Shown here piece by piece: positions 36,347 through 49,474 of a DNA stretch of 64,000 bases. The DNA is from an uncultured Spirochaetota bacterium (GTDB taxonomy: Bacteria; Spirochaetota; Spirochaetia; SZUA-6; Fen-1364): the NCBI GenBank assembly GCA_963781885.1, contig CAWAHW010000004.1:98139-162138 (forward strand), in the 5' to 3' direction. Positions within the stretch are counted from its first letter, which is position 1; each line of letters begins with the position of its first letter. The notes below the pieces were generated by a model that had not been told where the DNA came from, searched no databases, and was given only the letters and a program-made list of their open reading frames with translations. A program made the position numbers and the translations under genes.

Positions 36347-36448
36347 CCTTCAGCGAGCATCGGCGGAGAAGCTTTTCTTGCCGTCATGAATGGTACCCGT
36401 CGTGCCTTGGGGCCGGCATCAGGCGCAAGCACGTGGCCAAATAAAAAA
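36347..36448. repeat. Direct repeat of the 5S downstream flank (copy of 49246-49359)
   Basis: GAAGCTTTTCTTGCCGTCATGAATGGTACCC...GCGCAAGCACGTGGCCAAATAAAAAA present at both sites. Confidence 0.9.
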
Positions 36449-36558
36449 GCCTGGCAACGACCTACTCTCCCACCTCAAGTAGCACCATCGGCGTGGCAGG
36501 GCTTAACTTCCGTGTTCGGGATGGGAAGGGGTGGAACCCCTGCGCCATGTCACCAGGC
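36449..36558 (-). rRNA. rrf: Orphan, diverged 5S rRNA copy (possible pseudogene)
   Basis: Full-length alignment to the 5S at 49360-49474 with several substitutions and a net 5-nt deletion. Confidence 0.75.
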
Positions 36559-36907
36559 AATATTCACACGAGGGATAGGGCCTTTTCGCTGTCCTGCGCG
36601 CCACGCAATTGCGCCCCTTTCGGGTCGCAAGGTGTCGCTGGGCCAGCTGGCGGGCTGCGCACTTTTGCCGGGCAAAAGTGCTGGGGAAAGAAGTGAATGA
36701 ATGTCACGGATGAGGGGAGTGCCCCTCGAGCGGACTAGCGGTGCGTCGCTCCACGCCGTCTTGCTCAAACAGCGCGTGGGCTATCTTCATCACTGATCAC
36801 ATTCTCAAGCAACGACGACTGCCACAGCCGATCCAGAGGAAGGCGAACGCGGATTCAATTCTCGAGAAGATCCGACAACCTCCTCAAGCTGTCTCGGAGT
36901 CGTGACA

Positions 36908-38716
36908 CTAGTTCCAGATCCGTGCCACGAAGCCTGCGCTGTGAGTGGTTCCATCGTTGTATTGGTCGAAGAACCCACCCAACAGGATCCTGCCGTCACT
37001 TTGAACGGCACTGGACCAGACACTGGTAGCCTGGCCGGCATAGTTGAACCCACTGCCAGGGCTGAACGTGGCGTCGAAGCTTCCGCTGGCATTCAGGCGC
37101 GCAGCTTGACCGACAGGATGGTCGGTACCATCGCTGTAGCCGGTGAAAGCACCGCCAATGACGATCTTGCCGTCCGTTGGCTGCACGGCGATCGTATAGA
37201 CGACGTCATTTGCTCCCGTGTGGCCTGAGTTGAAGGAGGTGTCGAGGCTGCCGTTGGCGTTCAATCGTGCTATACGGCCACTACAGCTCGTCCCGTTGTA
37301 GGTCGTGAACCATCCGCCCAGGAGGATCTTGCTATCGCTGGGCTGCAGGGCAATCACGTAGACCGTGGCGTTGGCTCCGGTGCCACCAGAATTGAAGGTA
37401 GTGTCGAGGCTGCCGTCGGCATTCAGGCGCGCCAGCCAGCCGACAGTGTGATCGGTGCCGTCGTTATAGCTGCTGAAGGCACCCCCTATGAGGATCTGGC
37501 CATTGCCCAGCACTTGAATCGAATTGACCGTGCTATTGGCTCCCGTGCCACCGGAATTGAAGGAAGTGTCGAGGCTTCCGTCGGCGTTCAGCCGCGCCAG
37601 ATGGCCGACGGTGTGATCGGTGCCGTCGTTGTAGCCGGTGAAAATACCGCCGAGGAGGATCTTGCCGTCCGCGGGCTGCAGGGCGATCGTCTCCACGTTG
37701 TTGCCAGGTCCCGTGCCGCCTGAGTTGAACGAGACATCGGGGCTGCCATTGGTGTTCAGCCGCGCTAGAGCTGGACTCCCGGTACGACAACCAACAAGGA
37801 TCTTGCCATCGTCCTGGACGGCAGATGAATCGAACCATGGCATCTTATCCGGCCAATTGGAAGAAGAATCAAACGAAGTGTCGTAGCTGCCGTCCGCGTT
37901 CACTCGAACAACACCGTTGCCAAGGTGCGTTCCGGTACTGTCTGTATAGCCGTAAAGCAGCCCACTGAAAATCAATTTGCCATCGCTCTGTATGACAATC
38001 GAAGATACATAATTGTTCGCCGTACCCAGGGAGGTATCCAGCATTCCCGGGTCGTTTTTAACCAGGACGGTTGCAGAAGCGACGGATGAGTCGCTCATCC
38101 CGGATTTCACCGCGCAGGCCTTGATCGTCTTCCAACTCCCTTTCCCGTTCACCAGGACCGGCAAGGAGCTCTGAAATACGGGTGACGAAGCCGAAGGCGT
38201 TGAGCCATCAGTAGTATAGTGGATGACCGCTCCCCCGGTAGTGTCGTTGATCGTGACAGACTGATCGGTGGTATATACGCCGGAGCCGGGAAAGATGGAC
38301 GGTGTGGAGACCTGGATGTAGTTGATTTTGTAGGTTGCACTTCCCACCCCGCTGGTCTTCATCCCTGTCGCGGCCGCAATCGCCTTGATGGTCTTTACGG
38401 TCCGATCGCTTGCCACCAGGATCGGTGCGCTGTAGAGCGTGGAGGATGTCGTTGGCGTACTGCCGTCCGTCGTGTAGTAAATGGAAGCCCCCGCCAAGGA
38501 GCATGACAGCCCCACCGTGAAGTCTACGGTTGAGACATACTGCCCGCTCGCATCCGCGGTCGGGGTGAACGTGGGGGTGGCCACAGTCTGCTGCAGCCGC
38601 TCCTGCAGGTCGTTCAGCAGTGAATTGGGGTTGCAGGAGAGAAGCATGACGACTGCCGCCGAGAGAGCCAAAGAAAAGGCCGGGACCCCTTTTCGATACC
38701 GCGCCATCCTGCCCAT
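36908..38716 (-). CDS. Surface lipoprotein: two chitobiase/Fn3-associated domains plus Delta-60 beta-propeller repeats
   Basis: Lipobox LLSC; ATPTF...IYYTTDGSTPT twice; repeated Q.DGKIL.GG.F...ARLNADGSLDTSF. Confidence 0.85.
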   Translation of the reverse strand: MGRMARYRKGVPAFSLALSAAVVMLLSCNPNSLLNDLQERLQQTVATPTFTPTADASGQYVSTVDFTVGLSCSLAGASIYYTTDGSTPTTSSTLYSAPILVASDRTVKTIKAIAAATGMKTSGVGSATYKINYIQVSTPSIFPGSGVYTTDQSVTINDTTGGAVIHYTTDGSTPSASSPVFQSSLPVLVNGKGSWKTIKACAVKSGMSDSSVASATVLVKNDPGMLDTSLGTANNYVSSIVIQSDGKLIFSGLLYGYTDSTGTHLGNGVVRVNADGSYDTSFDSSSNWPDKMPWFDSSAVQDDGKILVGCRTGSPALARLNTNGSPDVSFNSGGTGPGNNVETIALQPADGKILLGGIFTGYNDGTDHTVGHLARLNADGSLDTSFNSGGTGANSTVNSIQVLGNGQILIGGAFSSYNDGTDHTVGWLARLNADGSLDTTFNSGGTGANATVYVIALQPSDSKILLGGWFTTYNGTSCSGRIARLNANGSLDTSFNSGHTGANDVVYTIAVQPTDGKIVIGGAFTGYSDGTDHPVGQAARLNASGSFDATFSPGSGFNYAGQATSVWSSAVQSDGRILLGGFFDQYNDGTTHSAGFVARIWN

Positions 38717-38733
38717 TTTCCACCCTTCCTTCT

Positions 38734-47487: not shown

Positions 47488-47526
47488 GACTACCGGGGAT
47501 CCCGGCTCTCATGATAAAGTGCCCGG

Positions 47527-49134
47527 GTGAGCGACAAACTGGGAGCGCTACCGGACGGTGTGAAGGAGTTGCACGATCGTATTCGTCAGCTTGAGGCCAG
47601 CCTGGAGAAGGAACGTGCCGAGAAGATTGAATACCAGCACGAAGCTCTGAAGCATTTCGAGGAGATCCAGCTTCTGCGGCGACGGATATTCGGTCGCAGA
47701 GCGGAGAAGCTCAGCGAGGAAGACCGGCGTCAACTTCTGCTGTTCAACGAGGCTGAGGAAATTCTGGCGCAAGGCAGCGGGCAGCCTGAGGAGCAAACCG
47801 TCGAGGTTCGTGCTCATAGCCGACGAAAGAGCGGGCGCAAACCCCTGCCGCCCGAGATTCCCCGAGTCGAGACAATTCACGACATCAGCGAAGAAGAGAA
47901 GCAATGCGCCTGCGGGCAACAGATGGGCCGCATCGGGGAGGAGATCTGCGAAAAGCTTGAAGTGATCCCTGCCCGCATTCGGGTGCGCCGTCACGTGCGG
48001 CCCAAGTATGCCTGCCATGCCTGCGAAGGCTCGGGAGACGAGAGTCGAGCAGCAGTTCGTATTGCTCCTGCTCCCGTACAGCTTCTGCCCAAAAGCATCG
48101 CCTCTCCCGCCCTTGTGGCTTACATCATGGTGGGCAAGTTCTGTGATTCCTTGCCGTTCTACCGCCAGGAGAAGCAGTTTGCGCGCATCGGAGTGGAGGT
48201 CAGCCGTCAGGACATGGCCAACTGGAGCATTGCGGTGTTTCAGAGGCTTCGGCCGCTTCGGGAGTTGATGCGTAGCCAGATCCGTCGAGGCCCTCTGGTG
48301 CAGATCGATGAGACGACGGTGCAGGTCATGGGGGAGCCCGGGCGGCCCAACACCTCAAAGAGCTTTATGTGGGTATTCCTGGGAGGAAGCCCCGGTCAGC
48401 CTGTCGTAGAGTATCAGTACCATCCTACCCGCTCGGGCAAGATTCCTTTCGACGCTCTACGAGGGTATGAAGGCTTCATCCAAACAGACGGCTACGATGG
48501 TTATCAAGAGCTGGGAAGCCAACCGGGGATCGTGCATGTCGGATGCTGGGCACATACCCGGAGAAAGTTCTTCGAGGCCAAGGAAGTCTCCAAGACCAAA
48601 GGCAGCGCCGATGTCGCCTTGGCCAGCATCAATGAGCTTTTCAAGATCGAACGGACGCTCAGAGACGAGGATCTTGCTCCCAATCAGTTCACACAACGCC
48701 GTCGCGAGCAGACTGAACCTGTACTTGAGAAGCTGCGCGTATGGCTGGAGGAGCGCGAGGGTCAGGTCCCTCCGTCCACGACGCTGGGCAAGGCGATCGG
48801 CTACACCGTCGGGCAGTGGCCCAAGCTCATCCGTTACCTGGACAGCCCGCTGTTGGCTCCCGACAACAATGCCTGCGAGAGGGCCATTCGGCCCTTTGTG
48901 ATCGGACGCAAGAACTGGATGCTGTCAGGAAGCCCCGCAGGAGCGGAAGCCAGCGCGGCATGGTACAGCCTCATCGAAACCGCGAAGAGCAACGGCGTTG
49001 AGCCCTATCTGTACTTGTGTTACATCCTCGCCAGATTGCCCGACAGCAACAACCCTGCAGACTTTCAATTCCTTCTGCCCTGGAATATTTCAAAAGAATC
49101 CTTGCTCGATTTCCAGTCGGGACGTCTGGCCTGA
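47527..49134 (+). CDS. tnpC: IS66 DDE transposase TnpC
   Basis: Leucine-zipper, CACG/CHAC zinc finger, QIDETT, QTDGY, GCWAHTRRKF, DNNACERAIRP. Confidence 0.95.
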   Translation: MSDKLGALPDGVKELHDRIRQLEASLEKERAEKIEYQHEALKHFEEIQLLRRRIFGRRAEKLSEEDRRQLLLFNEAEEILAQGSGQPEEQTVEVRAHSRRKSGRKPLPPEIPRVETIHDISEEEKQCACGQQMGRIGEEICEKLEVIPARIRVRRHVRPKYACHACEGSGDESRAAVRIAPAPVQLLPKSIASPALVAYIMVGKFCDSLPFYRQEKQFARIGVEVSRQDMANWSIAVFQRLRPLRELMRSQIRRGPLVQIDETTVQVMGEPGRPNTSKSFMWVFLGGSPGQPVVEYQYHPTRSGKIPFDALRGYEGFIQTDGYDGYQELGSQPGIVHVGCWAHTRRKFFEAKEVSKTKGSADVALASINELFKIERTLRDEDLAPNQFTQRRREQTEPVLEKLRVWLEEREGQVPPSTTLGKAIGYTVGQWPKLIRYLDSPLLAPDNNACERAIRPFVIGRKNWMLSGSPAGAEASAAWYSLIETAKSNGVEPYLYLCYILARLPDSNNPADFQFLLPWNISKESLLDFQSGRLA

Positions 49135-49359
49135 GTTCATTACCGCAAGACGCCTCGCGGCTACGCACACAGGGGTGTGGTTGTTTTGACGGTTACCCCG
49201 CTTGAGCCGGGCGGTAGGTGCGGTTTAATTAGCGGTTACATTTAACCTTCAACGAGCATCAGCAGAAAGAGAGAAAGAGAAGCTTTTCTTGCCGTCATGA
49301 ATGGTACCCATCATGCCCTGGGGCCGCATCATGCGCAAGCACGTGGCCAAATAAAAAAA

Positions 49360-49474
49360 GCCTGGCAACGACCTACTCTCCCACTGTCAAGCAGCAGTAC
49401 CATCGGCGCGGCAGGGCTTAACTTCCGTGTTCGGGATGGGAACGGGTGGATCCCCTGCGCCATAGTCACCAGGC
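49360..49474 (-). rRNA. rrf: 5S rRNA
   Basis: GCCTGG/CCAGGC helix I; CCCATCCCGAACACGGAAGTTAAGC conserved core. Confidence 0.95.

Follow-up and report, generated by a model that had tools for sequence, protein, structure and literature searches.

The 64,000-nucleotide stretch analyzed here (hereafter the window) comes from an uncultured Spirochaetota bacterium (assembly GCA_963781885.1, contig CAWAHW010000004.1, positions 98,139 to 162,138). It carries a block of surface-protein genes that lies between a ribosomal RNA (rrn) operon and an AraC-type regulator gene, and this block is bounded and subdivided by complete or partial copies of the 5S rRNA gene. Within the block we also recognized the remnant of an insertion sequence (IS) of the IS91 family, and the origin of the block is considered below in light of this remnant and its relatives. 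The genome of the window (4.6 Mb) is designated G000, and other G numbers denote metagenome-assembled genomes (MAGs) of uncultured Spirochaetota.

The resident operon, rrnA, spans positions 49360 to 54864 on the minus strand. Rfam gathering-score matches locate its 16S gene at 53318-54864, a tRNA gene at 53010-53083, the 23S gene at 49663-52663, and the 5S gene at 49360-49473 (99 bits). The resident 5S gene is followed by a T-run terminator and ~110 nt of downstream sequence (49240-49359, minus strand), which we call flank A. On the same strand, 12.9 kb downstream of the resident 5S gene, Rfam, blastn, and a repeat search identified an orphan partial copy of the rrn 3′ end (36337-36720). It includes a second copy of flank A (36337-36448; 92-94% identity to the first), a full-length 5S sequence (model positions 1-120; 36449-36557) that carries a 5-nt deletion and receives a weaker score (72.6 bits), and traces of a diverged internal transcribed spacer (ITS) and the 23S terminus extending from 36558 to about 36720. 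Beyond this copy lies the gene for the AraC-type regulator (34269-36008, minus strand), which has a periplasmic-binding-protein domain according to Pfam and represents host DNA bordering the island.

A preliminary description of this DNA, made by reading the sequence, had proposed that the block is bracketed by direct repeats of 5S and adjoining flank, and this proved correct. The outer repeat measures 216 nt with 91.7% identity (36366-36575 versus 49277-49491, by blastn and repeat search), and weaker similarity extends to positions 36337 and 49240. Upstream of 5S, the repeat runs on into diverged ITS and the last bases of 23S. The further suggestion of an attachment site like that of islands at tRNA genes is not supported. 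Because the outer repeat encompasses the whole 5S gene and both of its flanks rather than a 3′ part alone, the distal copy is a partial rrn 3′ end and not a 3′-truncated copy of an attachment (att) site. Flank A is absent from the rrn flanks of relatives and is thus species-specific, and the orphan 5S is roughly equidistant (88-92% identity) from all resident 5S genes.

Two further 5S remnants lie inside the block on the same strand, again as initially described. One of these consists of an isolated 21-nt internal 5S piece (positions 55-75; window 40979-40999), which is 100% identical to the resident 5S gene, and an adjoining pseudo-5S tail (40998-41118, minus strand) comprising diverged 5S positions 44-114, a 50-nt hairpin insert at helix IV, and 15 nt of the type of flank that follows 5S in rrnB, the second operon of G000. 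The other remnant (46698-46723, minus strand) comprises the last 13 nt of 5S and the rrnB-type post-5S sequence TTTTTTTATGCCC, and is ended by the left inverted repeat (IR) of an IS66-family element. A 26-mer common to both, GGGCATAAAAAAAGCCTGGCAACGAC, was confirmed to be exact and has two occurrences, at window positions 41000 and 46698, where none is expected by chance; its copy at 46698-46723 exactly matches both 41000-41025 and rrnB. Both inner fragments are 100% identical to the end of the rrnB 5S gene and its terminator (G000:C4:635449-635489), and not to that of the adjacent rrnA operon. When the 4.6-Mb genome was scanned, all 5S fragments outside the two operons were found within the window block.

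The pseudo-5S tail abuts a remnant of the terIS end of an IS91-family element (41119-41275, minus strand), which was detected by its homology to IS91 ends in relatives. On the transposase-sense (plus) strand, this remnant begins with GTTG and the subterminal palindrome GGGCGTGCCCCGCCC (41119-41137), followed by a longer hairpin region, and a terminal hairpin is predicted with z values of -2.8 to -2.9. The window therefore contains the feature by which terIS is recognized in the IS91 family, namely a subterminal palindrome beside the cleavage tetranucleotide on the transposase-start side. Homologous segments lie just upstream of IS91-family transposase genes at G014:C13, G015:C8, and G016:C24, and in relatives the palindrome motif is preceded by CTTG and located upstream of intact transposase genes. 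The pseudo-5S begins right after the 5S sequence GAAC, which on the transposase-sense strand is GTTC, the IS91 target, such that terIS faces 5S positions 44-114. The only other IS91 trace in G000 is a solo terIS at C4:233560-233757.

This junction between terIS and 5S, GGGGCACGCCCA/ACACGGAAGT (22 nt, GGGGCACGCCCAACACGGAAGT), is present in five species-level genomes (G000 and four others), and degenerate versions occur at G018:C9, at G016:C10, and at a second site in G014:C13. The diverged bases in 5S positions 44-80 are common to all copies, and internal insertions to some of them, which indicates that the copies descend from one insertion event and were later copied or inherited into different contexts. 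Consequently, the 5S sites cannot be treated as independent att duplications, as had been supposed, since the fragments of diagnostic length are copies of a single unit in which the IS91 end is joined to 5S position 44.

The helix IV insert of the pseudo-5S (window 41038-41088) is a separate curiosity. It contains a hairpin, and the same insert is found at G014:C13, G015:C8 (L037), L051, and L054, with compensatory changes in the hairpin across species (CGGTTCGC...GCGAACCG versus GCGGTTTGC...GCAAACCGC). At G015:C8, it also appears within an otherwise full-length 5S copy. It could represent either a small mobile sequence with a defined structure or an expansion segment that 5S tolerates.

More complete versions of the element were found in relatives. 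At G014:C13 and G016:C2, an IS91-family transposase gene lies antisense to rRNA and directly upstream (in the rRNA sense) of a partial 23S sequence, and a decayed transposase gene occupies the same position beside partial 23S at G015:C8. The encoded protein is a distant IS91 relative, recognized solely through its Pfam domains, Y2_Tnp (PF04986) and Zn_Tnp_IS91 (PF14319). By comparing copies, we delimited the element at G016:C24 to about 1.86 kb. Its left (transposase-start) end consists of (C/G)TTG and the palindrome GGGCGTGCCCCGCCC, and its right end reads ...TTTGCCTATCA and is followed by CTTG (G016:C24) or CTCG (G016:C2) and then by unrelated flanks. According to published rules for the IS91 family, terIS is the left end and has a subterminal palindrome beside the cleavage tetranucleotide, oriIS is the right end and lies beside a CTTG/GTTC-type target, and no target duplication is produced (PMC13181058). 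The ends that we delimited agree with these rules (PMC13181058), with oriIS features of this kind (a CTTG/GTTC-type target, no target duplication) present in the relatives only.

Furthermore, a second type of junction joins terIS, through about 22 nt of filler, to 23S beginning at about position 2420. It was observed at G014:C13, G015:C8, G016:C24, G001:C121, and G018:C4, as well as in another genus (G077:C3), and the lengths of 23S, ITS, and 5S that follow it vary among copies. Two element copies in G016 occupy separate loci, share 98.4% identity, and are each bordered by 23S DNA at their terIS side, and more distant IS91 relatives (about 50% identity) showed no rRNA adjacency. At the level of sequence, these comparisons demonstrate that one IS91 lineage within the family carries rRNA sequence next to terIS, which starts either at position 44 of 5S or at ~2420 of 23S and in the latter case continues through ITS and 5S. 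Failure of terIS termination is reported for 1-14% of events and mobilizes adjacent DNA (PMC13181058). The recurrent junctions, together with the 23S sequence beside both G016 copies, fit the pattern expected from one-ended transposition by an element whose founder resided in an rrn operon.

The partial 23S copies also bear signs of exchange with resident operons. Their identity to the resident 23S of the same genome is 99.8% in G014, 99.5% in G077, 98.6% in G015, and 97.5-98% in G016 and G008, and each clusters with the 23S of its host or its host's clade. Given that the junction has a single origin, such near-identity to the host points to gene conversion or homologous recombination with the resident operons. 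Every partial copy has the same orientation as the resident operon, a requirement for integration by a single crossover. IS91 remnants lie antisense between a complete 5S gene and a partial copy at G009:C25, G014:C13, G015:C8, G016:C10, and G018:C7.

Partial rrn copies are widespread among close relatives. In many rrn operons of the genus and family, the operon is followed by same-strand partial copies of the rrn 3′ end that separate blocks of different genes. Six genomes of the genus have two same-strand full-length 5S genes located 3-40 kb apart, and many contain extra fragments, some of which start at about position 2426-2886 of 23S and run through the 23S terminus, the ITS, and 5S, and others of which keep only the final 18-71 nt of 5S. 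Within the order, additional 5S copies are nearly confined to one family (f1), and closed genomes from other families have one 5S gene each. The gene content downstream of rrn 3′ ends differs in every species, and hence the expectation of different cargo at the same anchor was borne out.

Empty and occupied alleles were recovered at one of the two operons. At rrnB, G000 is empty, with the conserved flank directly following 5S. The corresponding site at G009:C25 is occupied and has the order 5S, a 4.9-kb block (a PIN gene and a gene for a large CarboxypepD_reg protein), the 3′ end of 23S with 5S, a 5.7-kb block (an SCPU/PapD/usher pilus operon), a 3′ fragment of 5S, and then the rrnB flank. At G016:C10, a 1.8-kb block and a 5S fragment precede this flank. 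The rrnA orthologue at G009:C17 is clean, and thus occupancy is reversed between G000 and G009. The complete SCPU/PapD-chaperone/usher operon constitutes one cassette between 5S copies (L030, G009:C25, 11533-15602), and in G000 as well as in G009 the rrnB flank is adjoined by a PIN-domain gene. Fixed synteny lacking an empty allele, which would have spoken against accretion, did not hold among relatives, and the idea of repeated accretion at the rrn 3′ end is supported.

The search for an empty allele at the window locus itself, in which flanked 5S would directly adjoin the AraC gene, had a different outcome. Seven other genomes of the genus have an AraC orthologue, and none of these genes lies beside rrn or 5S except on contig G009:C34; no empty rrnA-AraC site was present among the relatives examined. 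Therefore, the proposal of empty and occupied alleles holds for the paralogous rrnB locus (G000 versus G009:C25 and G016:C10) but not for the rrnA-AraC locus. Synteny with relatives ends just upstream of the AraC gene (window position about 36050), at the orphan 5S. In G018, the AraC gene is followed by DNA that in G000 lies 223 kb away (C4:134187 versus C4:357560). This displacement has one breakpoint at the orphan 5S, and no rRNA fragment is present at its other end.

Contig G009:C34 matches window positions 32227-40236 at 99.5% identity, whereas the rRNA sequences of G009 itself are 94-96% identical to those of G000. This contig is therefore probably mis-binned and derived from a strain of the window's species. 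Independent assembly support is limited to the orphan-5S side, for which G009:C34 provides the order AraC, flank A, orphan 5S, and cargo block 1. Genome G009 lacks window positions 40236-46723, yet it is only 69% complete and its contig C34 is the one that is probably mis-binned.

The cargo of the window is arranged in two blocks that together contain five open reading frames (ORFs), encoding three lipoproteins (lipoboxes LLSC, LASC, and FAGC) and two signal-peptide proteins with transglutaminase and TPR domains. Cargo block 1 (36908-40860, minus strand) encodes a DUF5122 propeller/CHB_HEX lipoprotein (36908-38737) and a secreted beta-barrel/transglutaminase/TPR protein (38734-40860). Cargo block 2 (41549-46540, mixed strands) encodes a lipoprotein (41549-42409, plus strand), a DUF1565 beta-helix lipoprotein (42870-44315, minus strand), and a secreted transglutaminase/TPR protein (about 44441-46540, plus strand). 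Each block thus represents a module in which a secreted transglutaminase/TPR protein is paired with one or more lipoproteins. The initial claim that the cargo consists only of surface lipoproteins and their partner genes applies to these two modules, but the third unit (46724-49196) is an IS66-family element. The reported drop in GC content was verified: values are 52-57% at 41.5-44 kb and 57-62% at 44-46.5 kb, compared with 62-70% in neighboring host genes.

No orthologue of the DUF1565 lipoprotein was present when 20 other genomes of the genus were compared, and the DUF5122/CHB_HEX lipoprotein is found in G000 and on contig G009:C34 only. Judged by these orthologue comparisons, the cargo lipoprotein genes are unique to the window's species within the genus. 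Searches for exact protein matches yielded none, or only a 1.3-kb contig. No DNA or protein similarity was detected between the window cargo and the rrn-downstream blocks of relatives. The transglutaminase/TPR and lipoprotein module has at least eight other paralogous loci in G000 (27-58% identity), and as far as homology indicates, the island carries species-specific members of a native surface-protein family. Paralogues of the module in G000 are located at C1:94-99 kb, C7:14.7-21 kb, C4:23-25.8 kb, C6:298-300 kb, C2:324-326 kb, C1:207-209 kb, C1:526-527.5 kb, and C7:176-178 kb. The combination of a transglutaminase/TPR protein with variable DUF5122 or DUF1565 lipoproteins may serve as a surface-display or export module.

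The IS66-family element (46724-49196, plus strand) has perfect 23-nt IRs, GTAACCGTCAAAACAACCACACC, that begin with GTAA, and contains orf1 (46809-47150), TnpB (ending at 47487; TnpB_IS66), and TnpC (47527-49134; DDE_Tnp_IS66). This set of three ORFs with TnpB_IS66 and a DDE-type TnpC, together with the IRs, is characteristic of the family, and the Pfam matches are PF05717, PF03050, PF13817, PF13007, and PF13005. A vestigial second right IR (49217-49239, plus strand; 17/23 match, read from the sequence) lies 20 nt beyond the element and abuts the end of flank A. The window element has no 8-bp target duplication (flanks GCAACGAC versus CCCGCTTG), whereas the sister copy on C2 is bordered by CCTTGTTT at either end. 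The missing duplication points to rearrangement after insertion rather than to non-membership in the family. Furthermore, this absence and the 21-nt 5S piece at 40979-40999 point to additional illegitimate events. Three IS66 copies are present in G000 (window 46724-49239, C2:1140260-1144827, and C5:328576-331048), and the 8-bp duplication is found in the C2 copy alone, with the window and C5 copies lacking it. The C2 copy, about 4.5 kb long, possibly contains passenger DNA. The two copies without duplications were also considered as products of reciprocal exchange with each other, an explanation that was rejected because their flanks fail to match crosswise.

One additional repeat concerns the 16S-23S spacer of the resident operon. 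A 26-nt piece of this spacer (window about 52934-52959) recurs elsewhere in G000, both as dispersed copies and in two tandem arrays of 6 and 5 units that repeat every 25 nt. Its copies are located at C2:626159-626309, C2:789751-789882, and C2:1255585-1256028.

Taken together, we regard it as reasonably probable that the block represents an island accreted at the rrn 3′ end and since decayed, and that it was built by an IS91-family element and homologous recombination without an integrase. In this model, the IS would first insert into 5S at a GTTC target, and also into 23S. Read-through at terIS (one-ended transposition) would then generate units or circles that contain the rrn 3′ end and the DNA downstream of it, and these units would recombine through their rRNA homology with resident rrn operons. 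The resulting order would be rrn, donor flank and cargo, IS91 (antisense), a partial rrn copy, and the resident flank, and each new event would push older cargo outward such that newer cargo is proximal. Finally, the structures would decay; in G000, the transposase would have been lost, and an IS66 insertion with an adjacent deletion would have truncated one junction. The insertion, read-through, and decay steps are reconstructed from the anatomy of the copies.

Two features of the window can be placed within this scheme. First, cargo block 2 lies between an rrnB-type 5S end, truncated by IS66, and a terIS joined to a pseudo-5S with rrnB-type flank, an arrangement that fits one IS91-rrn unit whose transposase was deleted. 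Second, cargo block 1 and the orphan copy of ITS, 5S, and flank A would represent an earlier event, which the species-specific nature of flank A places within the species. The initial view of 5S as a repeatedly used site with tandem accretion is retained with respect to anchoring at the rrn 3′ end and variable cargo, but not with respect to an att site or an integrase.

Several observations weigh against this accretion model. Neither an IS91 transposase (by tblastn) nor an oriIS was detected in the window or in the whole G000 genome, and by sequence the window holds a ~155-nt remnant of an IS91 end rather than a member of the family. The outer repeat of 5S and flank A shows no IS91 trace, and its species-specific flank implies that this duplication arose within the species. 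Since the cargo belongs to a native paralogue family, it need not have come from outside. A metagenome scan for flank A returned 0 matches, and neither a circle nor an excision product nor a strain polymorphism was seen. No tetranucleotide was seen at the distal ends of the co-mobilized 23S pieces. At G016:C10, 6.4 kb of conserved flank precedes a partial 23S-5S copy, a position that direct transposition of a unit explains as well as recombination does. Finally, support for the recombination step is indirect, and we infer it from concerted evolution and orientation. The observation itself is solid and holds across the family, and the mechanism is plausible; for the window, it draws on a short remnant and on comparison with relatives.

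An alternative is that the block arose by local rearrangement. The partial rrn 3′ copies would then be debris left when the two rrn operons underwent unequal crossing-over, gene conversion, and large rearrangements, the orphan 5S would mark a breakpoint, and the IS91 and IS66 remnants would be bystanders that landed by chance where insertions are tolerated. In favor of this view, synteny with G018 breaks off precisely at the orphan 5S, and the DNA that continues it in G018 is found in G000 at a distance of 223 kb. The rrnB-type 5S ends inside the rrnA island, the IS66 element without target duplication (a sign of later rearrangement), and cargo from a native paralogue family also speak for it. 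We nevertheless judge this explanation unlikely because identical IS91-rRNA junctions are found repeatedly, in many species and in two genera, some of them at loci remote from rrn, and rRNA adjacency is specific to one IS91 subfamily. Moreover, genomes from other families of the order, including many that are closed, have nearly always a single 5S gene.

Site-specific integration is less probable still, and we consider it doubtful that the 3′ end of 5S acts as an att site for a recombinase that is supplied in trans or has been lost, with cassettes inserted in tandem as at tRNA genes. Several short fragments do retain the last 18-50 nt of 5S and the T-run with a common 3′ boundary, the intact gene is proximal and the partial copies are distal, and empty and occupied alleles exist. 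However, no recombinase was found in or beside any island examined. Tyrosine recombinases (PF00589) were absent from the rrn-downstream islands of 10 genomes and serine recombinases (PF00239) from those of 8 genomes, contrary to the anticipated linkage of a recombinase to 5S fragments. The window likewise contains no integrase, as first described: by Pfam, the ORFs of the block are the five cargo genes and three IS66 genes. In addition, both the outer repeat and many of those in relatives take in the complete 5S gene, the ITS, and as much as 580 nt of 23S. The fragments start at various 5S positions (44, 66, 76, about 87, 92, 95, and 97), and those of sufficient length for a verdict have the diverged bases and the IS91 junction in common, which marks them as copies of a single unit. 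An integrase in the vicinity of a 5S-like sequence was noticed at one location only, G008:C8:37210-50320, which has split tyrosine-recombinase genes at a distance of 4 kb from a low-scoring 5S-like match (31 bits). Lastly, a mis-joining of rrn, 5S, and IS66 repeats during assembly is very improbable: although the source is a MAG with IS66 in three copies and rrn in two, contig G009:C34 reproduces the arrangement from AraC to cargo block 1 at 99.5% identity over 8 kb, the copies differ (92% identity, different flanks) and hence are not collapsed repeats, and numerous independent assemblies of few contigs show this architecture as well.

A broader and more tentative possibility that follows from the accretion model is that this IS91 lineage has made the rrn 3′ end a portable landing pad for captured DNA, again without an integrase, in uncultured soil and sediment Spirochaetota. 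Under this proposal, the cargo would include surface-protein modules, pilus operons, and toxin-antitoxin genes, captured DNA could recombine, within almost universally conserved sequence, into the operon of every related host, capture would resemble that by ISCR elements, and the process would possibly cross species and genus boundaries. Ribosomal RNA operons are usually seen as conserved landmarks and as substrates for large inversions, not as sites where accessory genes are acquired. If an IS91-type element spreads rRNA homology arms, then any related genome offers a ready and highly conserved insertion site. Islands would form without an integrase signature, and island finders keyed to integrases and tRNA genes would miss them. 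The orphan and partial 5S and 23S copies in these genomes would also be explained, and extra 5S or 23S fragments in MAGs need not mean assembly error.

Our literature search, the coverage of which was incomplete, returned no IS91-family element fused to rRNA genes and no 5S-anchored island. Several known systems share some of the features described above. The Tet-island of Chlamydia suis, in the zone between rrn and nqrF, is reported to move between strains by homologous recombination (PMC5293829, PMC10715202). It resembles the present block in being an accessory island beside rrn that relies on homologous recombination and has no integrase of its own. It differs in that it is a single recent acquisition in one species, and the abstracts of these reports mention no fusion of an IS end to rRNA and no nested partial rrn copies.

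The elements IS91, IS801, and IS1294 share with the element in relatives a Y2 HUH transposase with an N-terminal zinc domain, the absence of IRs and target duplications, a terIS tetranucleotide and palindrome, CTTG or CTCG beside oriIS, and the co-transfer of DNA on the terIS side. In the present case, the passenger is rRNA sequence, transposition is predicted from sequence comparison, and the window keeps a terIS remnant only. Islands at tRNA and tmRNA genes likewise have a stable RNA as anchor, an intact proximal copy with truncated distal copies, tandem arrays, and empty alleles in relatives. Unlike those islands, the structures described here have no integrase, their repeats cover the whole gene and both flanks, and their fragments have variable limits and derive from one IS-linked unit. 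Borrelia species carry a tandem 23S-5S duplication in which the copies are complete, functional, and adjacent. This is also a spirochete rRNA locus with a duplicated 23S-5S part, but it involves no cargo and no IS junction.

The closest parallel in organization may be ISCR1 in complex class 1 integrons, where the duplicated 3′ conserved segment (3′-CS) forms a direct repeat around variable cargo. The route proposed for ISCR1 is read-through at terIS, followed by rescue through homologous recombination in the conserved segment. Both systems thus feature a rolling-circle IS91-type element beside a conserved segment that is duplicated around variable cargo, and the same route is proposed for each. 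There are also three differences. First, the portable homology here is the rrn 3′ end (the 23S 3′ end with ITS and 5S, or the 5S tail) instead of the 3′-CS. Second, the element described here keeps its terIS. Third, the cargo consists of surface-protein and other accessory genes in environmental spirochetes rather than resistance genes. ISCR elements are known mainly from clinical Proteobacteria. The mechanism proposed above would extend the ISCR paradigm beyond resistance integrons.

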